The notes: a model not told the origin generated them from the letters alone. Shown: positions 33,191 through 40,175, counted from the stretch's first letter. The stretch is 64,000 nucleotides of DNA from Candidatus Moraniibacteriota bacterium (GCA_003482885.1 DMXN01000032.1:13129-77128); one strand, 5' to 3'. Numbers and translations: made by a program.

Positions 33191-33967
33191 TTATCCCAAT
33201 CTCTGCTTGACATATTCCCGAAAACGCAAAACTCTTTCTTGATCATCGGGCTTGAGAAGAAACGGAAAGACATCTTTGGTCAATTTCGCCAAATCTAAAT
33301 CGCCGATTGAGGCTAGTAATTTTTCTTTTAATTCGTCTTTATTTTTAATACCAAATTTAAACGATAAATATTCATAATTAAAATCTCCCCTACCAAGCAA
33401 ATAACTCAGGTCATAAAAATCTCTGCCCTTCATTCTTTTTCTGCCAAAAATAGCTGCCACTTTCATCGACAAAATAATATCAATCGGCGTTATTTTAATA
33501 TTGCGAAATACATCAAACTTTTGCAATAAATAATTTTGTGGCACATACTCAAAACTATGCGGCACTGTGTCAATTTGAATTAGAATTTTTTCATTCTCCG
33601 CCACGCTCAAATTATTTGCTTGCAAAATTCTGGGAATTTTTATGTGGCAATGAAAGGCTCCTTTAAAAACATTCCTCATTTCAATTTCATAACCTTCGAG
33701 TTCCAACTCCTTTTTAATAATTTTTGACAACTCTATGAATTCATCGGCAGTCAAACCGAAATTATCGAAATCCAAGTCTTCGGAAAAACGCGCGCTGCCA
33801 TAACAAATTTTGATGGCTGTGCCACCTAAAAAAGAAAGCTTGGCGCCGATTTCCTGCTTGAAAATTATATCCAAAATTTTGTATTGCAAATATTCCCGCA
33901 AAATACCACGATCAAAACCGACTAAATTATTTGGATAGTGCTTTTTTATTTCACTGATACTGATCAT
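33191..33967 (-). CDS. AbiEii-family nucleotidyltransferase toxin, pair #2
   Basis: LSFLGGTAIKICYGSARFSEDLDFDN; 4-nt overlap with the upstream antitoxin. Confidence 0.8.
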   Translation of the reverse strand: MISISEIKKHYPNNLVGFDRGILREYLQYKILDIIFKQEIGAKLSFLGGTAIKICYGSARFSEDLDFDNFGLTADEFIELSKIIKKELELEGYEIEMRNVFKGAFHCHIKIPRILQANNLSVAENEKILIQIDTVPHSFEYVPQNYLLQKFDVFRNIKITPIDIILSMKVAAIFGRKRMKGRDFYDLSYLLGRGDFNYEYLSFKFGIKNKDELKEKLLASIGDLDLAKLTKDVFPFLLKPDDQERVLRFREYVKQRLG

Positions 33968-34578
33968 AATTTTATAACTTTATTTAATCTTTTAATTTTT
34001 TTGCTTAATGTGTTTGAATTAAATTCTTTTAAATATTTTTTCAATTTTTCTTGATTAATAAGTTCATGATAAATTTCTTCATTTAGTCTTAATTCTGAAA
34101 TATCATCTTCAGTTCGTATATCACTGCGCAAATACAAAAAATCCAAAATCGCTTTTTCCGGCTCGGCGATTTTATATGCCACATTGCCATTGTTAACAAT
34201 TTTATAACCGAAAAACAAATTTTCTTTTATTGAACGATATTGAAAATTGCCAATAGAAGTTTCTAACATTCTGGTTTTTCTGGTCGCAATGCAGGTTGTC
34301 AAAAAAACAACCTCCGGAATTAAGTTGTAAATCCTTAAAGCGGATTCCATGCTGACATAAGACGGCTCGACTAATTTGTTGCTGATAAAATAATTTTCAT
34401 TTTCATCAATCGTCTTGTCCGCGAAAACATAAAATAAATTGAAAAGTTTTTTAATATAACCTTTTTTTTGCCATTCATAAAATCGCCTAGATTCAAAATC
34501 AGGAAAAATATTCTTCACTTCCCGCATATCAATCAGTGCTCGATTTTTAAAAGTATTATAAAAATCTAGATATTTCAT
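33964..34578 (-). CDS. AbiEi-family antitoxin, pair #2
   Basis: …PSYVSMESALRIYNLIPEVVF… matches the AbiEi pattern; 204 aa. Confidence 0.7.
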   Translation of the reverse strand: MKYLDFYNTFKNRALIDMREVKNIFPDFESRRFYEWQKKGYIKKLFNLFYVFADKTIDENENYFISNKLVEPSYVSMESALRIYNLIPEVVFLTTCIATRKTRMLETSIGNFQYRSIKENLFFGYKIVNNGNVAYKIAEPEKAILDFLYLRSDIRTEDDISELRLNEEIYHELINQEKLKKYLKEFNSNTLSKKIKRLNKVIKL

Positions 34579-34758
34579 TTCTTTTTTTAGTTATTTTTAA
34601 CCAATATCTGAAATAATTATAACATATCTGAGAAAAATTGCAAGTTTTGAGAAAATCATCATATTTTCTTGCCGGCGCTTTTGCAAATGAAATTGAGCCG
34701 TTCTTTTAGGACAAAAAACATAATCGCGCAAGATATCGCGCAAAGAAATTTTTTAAAT

Positions 34759-34789
34759 AAAAAAAGCCGACTCTTTTCCTAGAGACGGC
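34759..34789 (-). terminator. Terminator of the radical SAM/peptide operon
   Basis: Hairpin gccgactc-ttttccta-gagacggc (34766-34789, one mismatch) followed on the minus strand by a T-run. Confidence 0.4.
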
Positions 34790-34820
34790 TGAAAATGTTT
34801 ATTCTTGAAGAAAATCAGAG

Positions 34821-35813
34821 TTATGCCATTACATATTCTGCTCTGATTTTCTCGATTAGTTCAATCCGAGAAAAAATTTCTTCAGGTTCTTCAGAAATAT
34901 TCCCGATCGGTCGATTGACATTTCGCGCTTGGTCGACGCAGAAAACGATTTTACCGCGATGGTCGATACGCAATCCGCGACGGAATTCCGCGGGAGAACT
35001 TTCCAGCATCACCCGCAGAGTGCTTCTGTTAGCGATGGGTTTCTCAATGAAAGTTATTTTTTCTGCGCTTACTTTTTTCACATCCTCGCGAACACAATCA
35101 GAAAACGCATAAAAAATTTCTTTGTCGAGATAATCTCCTTTGACGGAGATTAACATTTCCCGAGGCGGATTAGAAACGAGATTGTTAATCGTATCCATAA
35201 AGACACCAACTTTTATATCTCTAGGATACAGCGGGAACATGTGAATATTTCTGACTCCCAAGTCCCGCAAAAATTTCGCAAACTCGTTCAATTGCGGTGC
35301 AGATTTTTCGTCAACCTTGTGCAAAACAAAAACGTCTGCGCCAGTGTCGAGAAGATATTTAATGCCGGAAATTGTTTTGGCAAAATTGCCCTTTCCCCTT
35401 GTCGCTTCGTGAACTTCTTCAAGCCCATCGAGCGACACATCGACGAAAGAAACAAGGCCTGCCAATTTTTTGGCATACTCTTTTGTCATGAGCGTGCCGT
35501 TTGTGATAACACCCACTTTTGGAATGCCCATCGCGCGTACTCCGCCAAGCACGGCAAAGGTTTTCTTGGGAGACAAAAAAGGTTCTCTCCCAACGATGGC
35601 GACACTCTCCAACCCGGAAAGCTTATGGACTTTCTGGATAAAGTTCAGCGTCGCATCCGTATCTATTTCCACAAATGACTCACCATTGATACCAGCAAGA
35701 TAACAATACGGGCAACGCAAGTTGCACATATTGTTGACGAACAGCGAGACACTTTTTATTTTGGGTGGTTTGGCTAACCGTCCCGCGCTTCCTTCAAATC
35801 CAACTGCGCACAT
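34821..35813 (-). CDS. Radical SAM enzyme (CxxxCxxC; no SPASM recognisable) with an N-terminal extension homologous to the upstream peptide
   Basis: MCAVGFEGSAGRLAKPPKIKSVSLFVNNMCNLRCPYCY is the 4Fe-4S cluster motif. REPFLSP, ITNGTL and VSLDG are rSAM core elements; 330 aa. Confidence 0.8.
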   Translation of the reverse strand: MCAVGFEGSAGRLAKPPKIKSVSLFVNNMCNLRCPYCYLAGINGESFVEIDTDATLNFIQKVHKLSGLESVAIVGREPFLSPKKTFAVLGGVRAMGIPKVGVITNGTLMTKEYAKKLAGLVSFVDVSLDGLEEVHEATRGKGNFAKTISGIKYLLDTGADVFVLHKVDEKSAPQLNEFAKFLRDLGVRNIHMFPLYPRDIKVGVFMDTINNLVSNPPREMLISVKGDYLDKEIFYAFSDCVREDVKKVSAEKITFIEKPIANRSTLRVMLESSPAEFRRGLRIDHRGKIVFCVDQARNVNRPIGNISEEPEEIFSRIELIEKIRAEYVMA

Positions 35814-35935
35814 TATTCACTCACCTCCTCTTCATTGTCGCAAGAAGTTGATTCTTCTGTTGCCGGCTTTGTCTCTATTTCTTCCTTGTCGTCCTCTTGT
35901 AATTGCCCTGCACTTCCTTCAAATCCTAACGCCAT
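35813..35935 (-). CDS. 40-aa highly acidic peptide (candidate RiPP-type precursor), translationally coupled to the radical SAM gene
   Basis: MALGFEGSAGQLQEDDKEEIETKPATEESTSCDNEEEVSE. GGAGGT lies 6 nt upstream of the ATG, and its stop TAA overlaps the rSAM ATG (TAATG). Its first 10 residues are repeated at the rSAM N-terminus. It is not in the ORF track because it is below the length cutoff. Confidence 0.5.
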   Translation of the reverse strand: MALGFEGSAGQLQEDDKEEIETKPATEESTSCDNEEEVSE

Positions 35936-36126
35936 GAGAGTACCTCCAAATATTAAGTTTTATAAGAACTGAAAACCGCTCCTTATTTAAACCATACAAG
36001 TAATTTATTTATTTTGTTTTCAAGTCAATACATTTTTAAATTATATTAGCAAATAACATCCTTTACGAAGCCAAAATTTGAACAAAATAATTTGACTTTT
36101 TCGACAACATAAAGTACCCTTGAATT

Positions 36127-36918
36127 ATGAATTATTCAAACAAACTTAAAAAAATAGGATTTTCCGAAGCGGAAGCCGCGGTTTATTTGGCTTGTTTGGA
36201 ATTGGGCGGAGCTAAAGCCTCTGAAATTGCCAAAAAAACAAATTTATTGCGCACTTCAATTTATACTGTCAGCAAAGCGCTTCTTGAAAAAAGTTATCTT
36301 CAAAAAAGCAAGCATGGCAAAATAGACAAATTTATTGCGCGCGATCCCAAAATAATTTTGGAAGAAACCCGAGAAAATCTCGATTCGTTCGCCGCGATTG
36401 TTCCCAATCTCGGAAATCTCATGAATCTTGCCGCCAAATGTCCAAAAGTAGAATTTTCCGAAACCAAAGAAGGAATTTTGAATATTTACAAACAAATAAT
36501 AAAGGCTGACAGAAAATATCCAATCTGTCTTATCGAGTCAGGCAAAGCAGTTGAAAAAATTTATGAGATTTCCGGATGGGACTTTGTTTATGAATGGCAA
36601 AAAAAGTTTTCAGAAAAAGATATCGCGGTTAAAGGAATTATCACAGATGACCTGCTTCCTGTTTTTGAAAAAATTCCAGAGAAGATAAAGAATTTGCTCA
36701 GCAGAAGAACTCAAATTGCACGAGTTATTAAAAAAGAGGAATTTCCTTTTTCAATCAATCTCTATCTTATGTATCCCAACCTTGTCTATTTTATAGTTCC
36801 TGATAGCTTGTTTGTCCTCAGTATTGAAAACAAGGATATTTATATTTCTCTAAAATCTATGTTTGAAGGATTATATGAAAAAACAAAATCAGTGGATGCA
36901 AAAGAAATTTTTGGATAA
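36127..36918 (+). CDS. TrmB-family transcriptional regulator
   Basis: LKKIGFSEAEAAVYLACLELGGAKASEIAKKTNLLRTSIYTVSKAL is a TrmB-type wHTH. It is divergent from the peptide/rSAM operon. Confidence 0.7.
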   Translation: MNYSNKLKKIGFSEAEAAVYLACLELGGAKASEIAKKTNLLRTSIYTVSKALLEKSYLQKSKHGKIDKFIARDPKIILEETRENLDSFAAIVPNLGNLMNLAAKCPKVEFSETKEGILNIYKQIIKADRKYPICLIESGKAVEKIYEISGWDFVYEWQKKFSEKDIAVKGIITDDLLPVFEKIPEKIKNLLSRRTQIARVIKKEEFPFSINLYLMYPNLVYFIVPDSLFVLSIENKDIYISLKSMFEGLYEKTKSVDAKEIFG

Positions 36919-36919
36919 G

Positions 36920-37534
36920 TTATTTTTTATGCCCCCGTCCCTCATGCCATGGAAACATATCTCGTCGAAGTTTTGCCATTCGGCCGTCGGGATGATAGAA
37001 AACCAAACCTTCTGCCAGAACTTCGGGAAATTTGAATTTTTGATTGAAAATACTTGGTAAAGTTTTGAACCATTCGGAAATGGAATAGAAATCTTTTGGA
37101 TATTTATTTTGCACCCAAGTGTGCCAATGACAGCGTTCGCTCAAAACTTCAAAAGGGATAAAAATATTGCCAGTGATTTGGTGCGGATTGCCATTGAAAA
37201 GTTCGCCGATGAGCTCTCCATAATGATCGCCATCTTCCCAATTGGCGCACCAACCGCGCTTTATCGCCTGCGCGATACCTTCAAAACAAGCTGCTTCCCA
37301 ATTGGTTTTATGAATATTAAAAATATTTTTTTCATTTGTCCGATTAAAAATCTCAGAAATATTTCCATTTTTAATTCGAATGCAAATATTCGTTCCGTCA
37401 ATTTTATCTGATGCTCGCACTCCCGACTCAAAAACCCAAGAATAATCAGGATCAATTTCCGGTGTCACGATATATCGTCCGTCAATTTCTTTTCGCACAA
37501 ATGGCGAATGAAGTTTTGGAAAATCTTTTAGCAT
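36920..37534 (-). CDS. Minimal ATP-dependent RNA/DNA ligase-family nucleotidyltransferase (KxDG)
   Basis: SDKIDGTNICI is motif I (KxDG), AEGLVFYHPDG is motif IV (EG-V), and MAKLRR is a motif V-like region; 204 aa. Confidence 0.5.
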   Translation of the reverse strand: MLKDFPKLHSPFVRKEIDGRYIVTPEIDPDYSWVFESGVRASDKIDGTNICIRIKNGNISEIFNRTNEKNIFNIHKTNWEAACFEGIAQAIKRGWCANWEDGDHYGELIGELFNGNPHQITGNIFIPFEVLSERCHWHTWVQNKYPKDFYSISEWFKTLPSIFNQKFKFPEVLAEGLVFYHPDGRMAKLRRDMFPWHEGRGHKK

Positions 37535-39344: not shown

Positions 39345-40175
39345 TTATAGCTTCGCATTGATTAGATTCTTTAAAATATTTTTCATATTTTTGCTGACAT
39401 TTTTTATATAATTCGCATCATCAATAAATGCTTCCAAATCCAATTCGATGCTTTTGGTGTCGGCTTTTTTAATATTGTCCAAAAGTATTTTCTTCAAGTC
39501 TTCTAAATTTTTCACATTTTCAATGCAAGAAATATTCGGAATAATTTCTTTTTCCAAATACCACATCAAATCAAAATAATCACGACCTTTAACCATCACT
39601 AAATCATTACCGTTTTTATCCGTTTTTTTCCACTGCCGGTTAAGAACCGCTCGAATTTTTGTCGCCATCAAAGTCGGCAAATCAAATGATTTTATCAAAA
39701 TAGACTTATTATATTTGAATAACGGCAAAATTTCGGTTTTATATTTTTTGCAAAAATCGAATCCGGAAAAAATTTCCACTTTCAAAAACAATAAGTCCGA
39801 CTCGCTTTTTAAGGACAAACCGATTTCATTGAGAATTGGAAATTTCAAATACACTCGAAATTTCTGCGCTGTTGTTTTGACCTGAAAACTATATTTGGCT
39901 TTAAAGAAACTTTCCAAATCACTTTTCAATTCAGTAATATCAACTTCTTTTTTCAAATCGACAAAATCCAAATCCTCGGAAAGCCGCGGCAATTTATGGC
40001 ACTGCGCAAGACACGACCCGCCATAAAAAACCAAATCGCTGTAACGCGGATGGGAATAAATAAAATCCAAAACCAAAATCTGCAAATAATCTTTGAGCAA
40101 ATTACGGTTGTACAGCGCGCTTTTCGAAGATGAATTCTGCAATAAATTTTTTAACTCTTCTTTAAGTCTTTCCAT
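39345..40175 (-). CDS. AbiEii-family nucleotidyltransferase toxin, pair #3
   Basis: LVFYGGSCLAQCHKLPRLSEDLDFVDLKK. Confidence 0.75.
   Translation of the reverse strand: MERLKEELKNLLQNSSSKSALYNRNLLKDYLQILVLDFIYSHPRYSDLVFYGGSCLAQCHKLPRLSEDLDFVDLKKEVDITELKSDLESFFKAKYSFQVKTTAQKFRVYLKFPILNEIGLSLKSESDLLFLKVEIFSGFDFCKKYKTEILPLFKYNKSILIKSFDLPTLMATKIRAVLNRQWKKTDKNGNDLVMVKGRDYFDLMWYLEKEIIPNISCIENVKNLEDLKKILLDNIKKADTKSIELDLEAFIDDANYIKNVSKNMKNILKNLINAKL

Follow-up and report, generated by a model that had tools for sequence, protein, structure and literature searches.

The described systems closest to the one reported here are the borosins and the burpitides, for which fused autocatalytic, split and multi-core architectures are established (10.1101/2021.12.24.474128). 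In a 64,000-nucleotide (nt) stretch of DNA from Candidatus Moraniibacteriota bacterium (GCA_003482885.1, DMXN01000032.1:13129-77128; the window), we analyzed a two-gene, translationally coupled operon in which a small open reading frame (ORF) for 40 amino acids (aa) precedes the gene of a 330-aa radical S-adenosylmethionine (rSAM) enzyme; both products open with the same short motif, and the operon is paired with a divergent TrmB-family regulator gene. As in OphMA-type fused and SonM/SonA-type split borosins and in BURP-domain burpitides, the motif is carried by the enzyme itself or by a separate adjacent gene, and its copy number differs by lineage. In contrast, the catalysts of borosins and burpitides are SAM-dependent N-methyltransferases or copper cyclases, the cores lie C-terminally or internally whereas the present motif stands at residue 1, and modification has been demonstrated there, whereas for the window system it is a proposal.

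The SPASM/twitch peptide maturases (SkfB, SuiB, CteB, ChlB, anSME, StsB and PapB) share with the window locus a small ORF upstream of the enzyme gene. Unlike them, the window enzyme has neither auxiliary-cluster cysteines nor an N-terminal RiPP recognition element (RRE; RiPP, a peptide synthesized on the ribosome and modified after translation), it scores far below the curated cut-offs, and its putative peptide has no conserved Cys, Trp or Lys target. The small-molecule rSAM enzymes viperin, BlsE, DesII and MoaA are similar to it in size, and the ABC importer and regulator contexts of its family fit such chemistry. Viperin, BlsE and DesII have no auxiliary cluster, a feature that the window enzyme shares. 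All four lack the N-terminal motif, and profile matches begin at position 16 or later.

Both window proteins open with MA-x-G-F-E-G-S-A-G-x-L, apart from an extra Cys at position 2 of the rSAM protein (Table 1). In the DNA, the shared block forms a direct repeat of 27 nt with 81% identity. An earlier note on this DNA had described the acidic 40-aa ORF with its ribosome-binding site, the TAATG overlap and the CNLRCPYC cluster motif, and all of these hold on re-reading the sequence; the TAA stop and the rSAM ATG overlap by one base, the last A of TAA. The note had also placed two copies of the block 120 nt apart: the two copies are present, and their spacing is 125 nt from start to start. Its divergent TrmB regulator was borne out by the PF01978 match (E = 1.2e-12), and the terminator that it assigned to the module was found again as a hairpin and T-run. 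An identical rSAM protein, and likewise an identical 40-aa product, occurs on eight independently assembled contigs, one of whose records names Candidatus Moranbacteria, so the duplication is not the assembly artefact that the note had considered. As a check against chance, the two-copy arrangement was seen again in eight orthologous loci. These results confirm the observation as such. A six-frame scan of the 64-kb window revealed no third motif copy, and the 40-aa ORF is absent from the NCBI annotation of this genome. The additional Cys codon of the window rSAM gene (35808-35810, minus strand) gives MCAVGF... where all orthologues have MAVGF..., so the offset of the motif from Met1 can move by one residue.

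A profile search of 1.84 billion representative proteins returned 78 representatives at E <= 1e-30, mostly of 300-330 aa and aligned from position 1, and a word-indexed search with the family alignment added about 95 further clusters. The family members range from about 300 to 380 aa, come from bacteria, the Candidate Phyla Radiation (CPR), DPANN and other archaea, and carry the motif at residue 1 in more than 100 clusters; nearly all of the proteins retrieved open directly on a related motif. The motif reads M-A-x-G-[FI]-E-G-S-A-G-x-L in the CPR clade, M-[ASTG]-G-A-[IMVF]-A-G-[ST]-[AT]-[IV]-L in the largest group, and M-A-[LVI]-G-[LIFW]-S-G-S-N-G-G in a group with an archaeon (L013) and a Patescibacteria genome (L035); variants such as M-x-x-[IV]-[AS]-G-S-x-G-G are seen in other groups. 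The Gly that precedes Ser/Thr (Gly8 in the window protein) is invariant in an 81-sequence alignment, as are the three cluster cysteines and the GGE motif. We define the family by a phi-x-G-[ST] arm at or beside residue 1 together with full-length homology, and the window enzyme belongs to it. Public records give the family proteins generic names only, and literature searches with motif strings and for CPR rSAM RiPPs returned nothing relevant and no description of the family, the motif or the small ORF. A contig scan with a generic cluster pattern yielded, among the matches listed (80 loci), about 10 family members, the rest being mostly unrelated rSAM genes.

AlphaFold2 modeled the enzyme from 81 sequences with a predicted local distance difference test score (pLDDT) of 88 and a predicted template modeling score (pTM) of 0.87, in which residues 1-13 had a pLDDT of only 23; with 8 sequences, these residues were likewise below 50. 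None of the solved relatives covers profile positions 1-15, all matches starting at position 16 or later. Taken together, the low pLDDT and the start of the structure matches lead us to regard the motif as a conserved N-terminal arm that is predicted to be disordered, and the model would tether it about 8 residues ahead of the first barrel strand by a short variable linker. When CPR-type motif words were searched among 5.8 billion proteins, 31 candidates were found, and the 8 matches were all small ORFs themselves. For the CPR-type motif, a general N-terminal sorting tag was rejected on this ground. Within the enzyme family the motif is the ancestral state, of which the small ORF is a derived copy; the shared block, once taken for a leader secondarily fused to the enzyme, is instead the ancestral N-terminus of the whole rSAM family.

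At the other end of the protein, many non-CPR family members terminate in ...AA, ...CA, ...AN or ...GN (e.g., LRAA, ASAA, AHAN and LHGN), among them P0016, P0024, P0030, P0036, P0037, P0038, P0041, P0043 and P0050. These shared endings suggest a possible second conserved terminal signal, which does not occur in the CPR clade.

The closest relatives of the window rSAM protein are few and 65-74% identical to it. Orthologous loci were inspected for an upstream small ORF, as the earlier note had proposed, and it is kept in 8 of 9 distinct loci, whose rSAM proteins are 65-99% identical. The orthologous small ORFs all open with MA[LVMI]G[FI]EGSAGKL and all have a strong Shine-Dalgarno (SD) sequence. 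In each of the 8 loci the stop codon is no more than 17 nt from the rSAM ATG, while the junction itself varies from a 1-nt overlap or a 1-3-nt gap to a 17-nt overlap in another frame, and the ...EV or ...GV C-termini of the small ORFs are the translated SD of the rSAM gene. No small ORF was found upstream of the distant homologues in L009, L011, L013 and L035.

Whether the peptide evolves neutrally, a question raised with the first description, has a different answer for its two parts. In the head, third codon positions vary across loci in 9 of 11 codons and second positions in 0 of 11, and the pooled proportions of synonymous (pS) and nonsynonymous (pN) differences are 0.63 and 0.06, indicating strong purifying selection. 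Head copies within one genome differ at a pS of 0.46, compared with 0.50-0.58 between genomes, with pN at about 0.06-0.07 throughout. Gene conversion was rejected as the cause of head conservation because pS is about the same within and between genomes, and the similarity of the copies is therefore kept by independent selection on each peptide. Lys11 is conserved in the small-ORF copy only. The tail, of 28-42 hydrophilic residues, has a net charge of -11 to +3 across orthologues, so that the extreme acidity first noted is a trait of this genome rather than of the gene family; the tail contains no conserved Cys and no other reliably conserved residue, including Trp and Lys positions. Its pN/pS was 0.38-1.12 in four close pairs, compared with 0.12-0.35 for the enzyme: the tail evolves almost neutrally. 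These results show that the 40-aa ORF is a real gene, that selection in the small protein acts on the head alone, the remainder being a hydrophilic spacer, and that the main conserved property of this spacer is that translation stops within 17 nt of the rSAM start codon.

One pair of loci stood apart in its rates. Between L002:1312-1464 and L018:955-1113, the small ORFs have a pS of 0.235, a pN of 0.069 and a 6-nt indel, whereas the accompanying rSAM genes are near-identical (pS 0.026). The small ORFs are thus about tenfold more diverged than the rSAM genes, and change or recombination has a local hot spot in the tail region.

The motif is also duplicated inside family enzymes. In P0229, P0234, P0057, P0073 and P0106 (Table 1), the extra copies are all in frame with linkers of 1-14 residues, and in the first four the second copy retains its Met. 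Gly-Gly stands ahead of the second copy in P0057, P0073 and probably P0234, which is consistent at the protein level with a translated SD (GGAGG); what was duplicated was probably the motif together with the translation-initiation region, as in the window. Each multi-copy protein has closer single-copy relatives and P0057 and P0073 are only 34% identical, so the duplications are independent. Including that of the CPR clade, we counted at least six duplications among about 150 clusters. In the CPR clade, the small ORF arose by an old tandem duplication of the rSAM initiation region and the first 12 codons. The repeated duplication suggests that the enzyme acts on or through the motif.

L004 is the only CPR locus without the small ORF, and in a neighbour-joining tree it is nested in a clade whose basal member L001 has it. 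Upstream, this locus has a region that is homologous to the leader of the other loci and joined straight to the rSAM start, a junction that would be the product expected from recombination between the two repeats. The rSAM gene of this locus (L004:6001-6925) has an internal out-of-frame deletion that removed the segment of about PQL...NIHMF and leaves products of 185 aa and 141 aa, while its TrmB gene is intact. L004 looks like a decaying copy of the module, and this co-loss, a single case, fits the small ORF and the enzyme as one functional unit.

Table 1. Positions of the features of the window (64,000 nt), with orthologous small ORFs and motif-duplicated family members.
Feature	Position	Strand	Details
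Small ORF, 40 aa	35813..35935	minus	MALGFEGSAGQLQEDDKEEIETKPATEESTSCDNEEEVSE; 14 D/E residues, one Cys
Head of small ORF, 12 residues, conserved			MALGFEGSAGQL; followed by a hydrophilic, fast-evolving tail
N-terminal peptide of small protein, Met in brackets			(M)ALGFEGSAGQLQEDDK
SD GGAGGT of small ORF	35942..35947	minus	6 nt ahead of ATG
rSAM enzyme gene, 330 aa	34821..35813	minus	N-terminus MCAVGFEGSAGRLAKPPKIK
SD GGAGGT of rSAM gene	35823..35828	minus	within small ORF, codes for terminal ...EEV
CX3CX2C cluster of rSAM enzyme	35703-35726		C30/C34/C37 in CNLRCPYC, residues 30-37
Repeat copy 1	35900..35926	minus	small-ORF DNA for G-F-E-G-S-A-G-Q-L
Repeat copy 2	35775..35801	minus	DNA for G-F-E-G-S-A-G-R-L at rSAM N-terminus
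Probable intrinsic terminator of the operon	34756..34790 (approx.)	minus	AGCCGTCTCT...AGAGTCGGCT, then T-run; read from sequence
Second terminator-like hairpin	34724-34743		terminator scan
Divergent intergenic region	35936..36126		conserved blocks, e.g., TGTTGTCGAAAAAGTCAAA
TrmB-family winged-helix regulator, 263 aa	36127..36918	plus	divergent; PF01978, 48 bits (cut-off 25.6), E = 1.2e-12
AbiEii nucleotidyltransferase toxin and upstream 204-aa partner	33191-34578	minus	PF08843, E = 4.7e-19
276-aa ORF, about 5 kb off	39345-40175	minus	AbiEii-like by eye
204-aa ORF just after TrmB	36920-37534	minus	sub-threshold RNA ligase matches (PF09414, 20.7 bits, cut-off 27; PF17720)
Orthologous small ORF	L001		51 aa
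Orthologous small ORF	L002/L003		50 aa
Orthologous small ORF	L018		52 aa
Orthologous small ORF	L006		46 aa
Orthologous small ORF	L007		54 aa
Orthologous small ORF	L008		54 aa
Orthologous small ORF	L103		54 aa
Two motif copies	P0229 (L016)		MAGAIAGTAILN-MSGAIAGTAIN...; linker 1 residue
Two motif copies	P0234 (L014)		MAGAMAGTAMLYLPKGGTKT-MTGAMAGVAMLYAPKGESK...
Two motif copies	P0057		MAGAIGGTALLKLNLDGDLNGGIH-MGGAIAGTSVL...
Two motif copies	P0073		MAGAMAGSAILSTHQWLNDPDGGIN-MGGAMAGSALL...
Three motif copies	P0106		three AGAMAGS units, no Met between

The window enzyme belongs to the rSAM superfamily (PF04055, 71.4 bits, cut-off 29.5) and comprises the disordered arm (residues 1-13), a partial TIM-barrel core and a SPASM/twitch-like C-terminal domain; its GGE-like motif VGREP is invariant. 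The SPASM model PF13186 reached only 14.1 bits against a cut-off of 21.5, too low for assignment to SPASM/twitch and in line with the absence of a SPASM Cys cluster noted before. Of the C-terminal cysteines, the CPR clade conserves one (VFC[AV]DQA) and the distant homologues conserve none, and a remnant of the SPASM start (...G..V.C......GNI...) is still present: the auxiliary-cluster cysteines have been lost. With just 19 residues ahead of the first barrel strand, the enzyme has no RRE or leader-binding domain, and StsB, AlbA and similar profiles align only from profile position 90-120 or so on, their N-terminal domains having no counterpart. The profile check proposed in the earlier note assigned the enzyme to no housekeeping family, as every NCBIfam match was far below its cut-off (MoaA 50.6 vs. 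284, anSME 53.4 vs. 349, NirJ 59.8 vs. 515 and AhbD 56.9 vs. 500 bits), and the broader family has no NCBIfam model. The viperin model NF038283 (viperin_w_prok) gave 57.3 bits against a cut-off of 180, over residues 20-146 only. The system is no viperin, sactipeptide system or SPASM enzyme.

Structure comparison of the predicted model gave scores of 23.1 for SuiB, 22.9 for SkfB, 22.2 for MoaA, 21.9 for ChlB and BlsE, 21.6 for viperin, and 21.3 for anSME and CteB, and the Foldseek result agrees. As modeled, the enzyme sits in the structural neighbourhood of the SPASM/twitch enzymes, and the predicted fold does not discriminate a peptide from a small-molecule substrate.

The divergent TrmB gene is the only conserved neighbour in the CPR clade. 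Orthologues in the same position are about 80% identical in L002, L004 and L006 and 42% in L001, and L103 has a TrmB gene at this position as well. Against sugar-sensing equivalog models, the window TrmB protein scored at most 32 bits, far from their cut-offs of 500-650. The intergenic region has a mean column identity of 69% in an alignment of seven loci and presumably holds the promoters and the TrmB operator. Elsewhere in the family, L035 has a divergent winged-helix protein of 261 aa, with HTH_27 regulators among the family partners, and in L013, L014 and L016 the divergent protein has 310-345 aa and two HTH_24-like domains.

For the function of the arm, the reading that covers most of these facts, and that we tentatively favour at clearly less than even odds, is that it may be the peptide on which the rSAM active site works, either as a true substrate, by self-modification of the Gly-Ser/Thr segment, or as a pseudo-substrate. 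The motif would be tethered in cis on the enzyme, the small protein would supply free copies in trans, and translational coupling would fix the ratio of the two, an arrangement that would parallel multi-core precursors and the fused and split forms of borosins. Induction of the operon would come from TrmB on sensing some ligand. The peptide modifiers SuiB, SkfB, ChlB, CteB and anSME among the structural neighbours speak for the arm as substrate. This reading accounts for the repeated favouring of more copies, fused or free, for the importance of only the 12-residue head, for the head not being a general tag, and for a small ORF that comes first and is translationally coupled, as RiPP precursors are. 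It is possible, if rather doubtful, that this would be the first rSAM family with its own N-terminus as substrate, in which a hydrogen would be abstracted from the invariant Gly-Ser/Thr segment of the tethered 12-residue arm. The reaction might end in a radical or cofactor derived from the protein, in an altered backbone or side chain, or in the release of a modified peptide. Evolution would then have gained substrate copies repeatedly, in several phyla in cis and in the Moranbacteria-like CPR bacteria by a split, whereby a co-translated mini-protein carries the copy.

Several points weigh against the arm as substrate. Modification of the arm or of the small protein is inferred from sequence features rather than directly evidenced, AlphaFold2 does not dock the arm into the barrel, so that access to the active site is assumed, and the enzyme has neither an RRE domain nor an auxiliary cluster. 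A self-modifying enzyme would be single-turnover without free copies, and most family members have none. The structural matches MoaA, BlsE, viperin and DesII, which act on small molecules, are equally good. Outside CPR and DPANN, the gene lies inside ABC importer operons with binding proteins of three unrelated types (NitT/TauT-like in L009, L011 and L054; SBP_bac_5 in L024, L030 and L039; OpuAC in L034), and CPR and DPANN members are paired with ligand-sensing regulators, and both contexts are a better fit for a small-molecule enzyme. The locus has no linked protease or exporter.

Conceivable chemistries, which are leads and not findings, would be pyruvoyl- or Ntn-type self-cleavage at G|S (cf. 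YEG|SC in PanD), formation of an MIO-like cofactor or a glycyl radical. The likeness to a glycyl-radical system is likewise only a lead. In PflA/PFL, the rSAM activase acts on an invariant Gly in a short exposed loop, the GrcA spare-part protein is a small separate protein carrying the Gly loop, and the cluster cysteines of the PFL activase lie near the N-terminus, as C30, C34 and C37 do here. The motif A-x-G-[FI]-E-G-S, however, does not match the glycyl-radical consensus R-V-x-G-[FY], and unlike in PflA/PFL it is on the N-terminus of the activase-like enzyme itself, with no glycyl-radical enzyme encoded nearby.

The main rival explanation, which we regard as serious although on balance doubtful, is that the substrate is a small molecule, such as a sugar, nucleoside, amine or sulfonate taken up by import, and that the Gly-rich arm closes over SAM and substrate as a mobile lid or ligand loop, or docks on a neighbouring protomer or partner. 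The small protein would then be a trans mimic of the arm that tunes the enzyme by competition for the docking site or by complementation. The NitT/TauT, SBP_bac_5 and OpuAC importer operons, the TrmB, HTH_27 or double HTH_24 divergent regulators of CPR and DPANN members and the lack of an auxiliary cluster favour this rival; the invariant Gly fits a conformational role, and a G-x-x-G-S-x-G pattern is typical of phosphate- or nucleotide-binding loops. What a lid leaves without a reason is the fixation of extra copies independently in at least six lineages and the long retention of one as a separate gene. An inhibitor made at a fixed ratio from the same mRNA would be an odd design, and true lids usually receive at least moderate AlphaFold2 confidence, whereas the arm has a pLDDT of 23.

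It is unlikely that the small ORF serves mainly to get the rSAM gene expressed, acting as a leader peptide or coupling ORF whose nascent motif, like that of the enzyme, is recognised by the ribosome tunnel or by an exit factor such as an Fe-S delivery protein or chaperone. Such a role would explain why the 8 loci all end translation within 17 nt of the rSAM ATG despite the differing junction frame, and the near-neutral tail of 28-42 residues approximates the length of the ribosomal exit tunnel; the mRNA is also less structured than shuffled controls (z = +1.79), and the duplicated unit always contains SD and ATG. The head, however, is selected as an amino-acid sequence and not as RNA, and its maintenance in the mature enzyme across bacteria and archaea would be unusual for a nascent-chain signal. 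The internal copies of P0106 lack start codons, P0229 has a linker of 1 residue, and any tandem duplication that places another copy at the N-terminus retains SD and ATG as a by-product. Two further candidates were considered for the coupling region. A structural RNA switch is unlikely given the same comparison with shuffled controls; Rfam gave no match at the locus even at a permissive E-value and nothing at gathering score in the whole 64-kb window, including tRNAs, rRNAs and riboswitches. A programmed frameshift or ribosome hop between the repeats is unnecessary, since a strong SD and an ATG of its own serve the rSAM gene and the loci differ in junction frame.

The earlier note had proposed a RiPP-like or self-priming system of unclear class. 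In its classical form, with the head as leader, the charged tail as core and the enzyme head as a cis-activating copy of the leader, we consider this distinctly improbable. The precursor-then-maturase order with translational coupling is typical of RiPP operons, and hypervariable cores behind a conserved leader are known. The tail is nevertheless a poor core: it has no Cys or other reliably conserved residue, its net charge runs from -11 to +3, and its pN/pS is about 0.4-1.1 against 0.1-0.35 for the enzyme. Beyond that, the enzyme lacks an RRE and a SPASM cluster, most family members have the head and no tail-bearing partner, the in-frame linkers are only 1-14 residues long, and no protease or exporter is linked.

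A viperin-like or other anti-phage defence enzyme, also suggested at first, is very improbable. The PADLOC pVip models match residues 22-153 with 62 bits and viperin_w_prok reaches 57 bits, viperins are among the structural neighbours, and an AbiEi/AbiEii pair starts 243 bp downstream of the rSAM gene; these model matches cover only the generic rSAM core, the viperin score is far under 180, and no nucleotide kinase is linked to the locus. The defence-rich neighbourhood is no clue either, because the orthologous loci adjoin ribosomal-protein genes, EF-P, RuvB and other TrmB modules and not defence genes. Gene starts do undergo short tandem duplication, and the tail evolves nearly neutrally, yet a non-functional remnant or assembly artefact is hardly credible when eight loci from independent assemblies keep the open frame, the strong SD and the intact head with synonymous sites near saturation, and an identical product is found on 8 contigs.

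Around the operon, the G+C fraction is 0.42-0.47 in the rSAM gene and 0.29-0.35 in the AbiE flank; nearby core genes such as YebC reach 0.43, so the difference is no sign of foreign origin. The AbiEii region and that of the AbiEii-like ORF are both low in G+C (about 0.29-0.33) compared with core genes. In L001:3497-10464 (JAURXY010000027.1), three modules stand in a row, each opening with a divergent TrmB-family gene. Small ORF and rSAM gene follow in the first; in the second, the ORFs encode 65 (50 by the gene call of the contig), 85 and 292 aa, and in the third they encode 194, 116 and 117 aa. Modules 2 and 3 show no N-terminus duplication. The importer operon of L054 runs on into a 1031-aa protein with a C-terminal HAD domain. 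In L016:1-8384, P0229 adjoins a protein that faintly matches DNA primase (PF01896), as well as several large uncharacterised proteins, and this contig may be a mobile element or virus-like.

The components of the system are of known kinds, namely an rSAM enzyme, a small upstream ORF and a TrmB regulator, and the proposed logic has precedent in other enzyme classes. If the arm is a substrate, this would be a self-modifying rSAM enzyme with a natural split variant, an architecture so far known only for methyltransferase (borosin) and copper (burpitide) systems, and a very small and easily handled one, made of a 12-residue motif and a 330-residue enzyme without auxiliary clusters. Whatever the mechanism, a widespread and unannotated rSAM family is defined here by an invariant N-terminal motif that is predicted to be disordered, and the recurrent duplication of this motif, together with its co-loss with the enzyme, provides a natural experiment on motif function.

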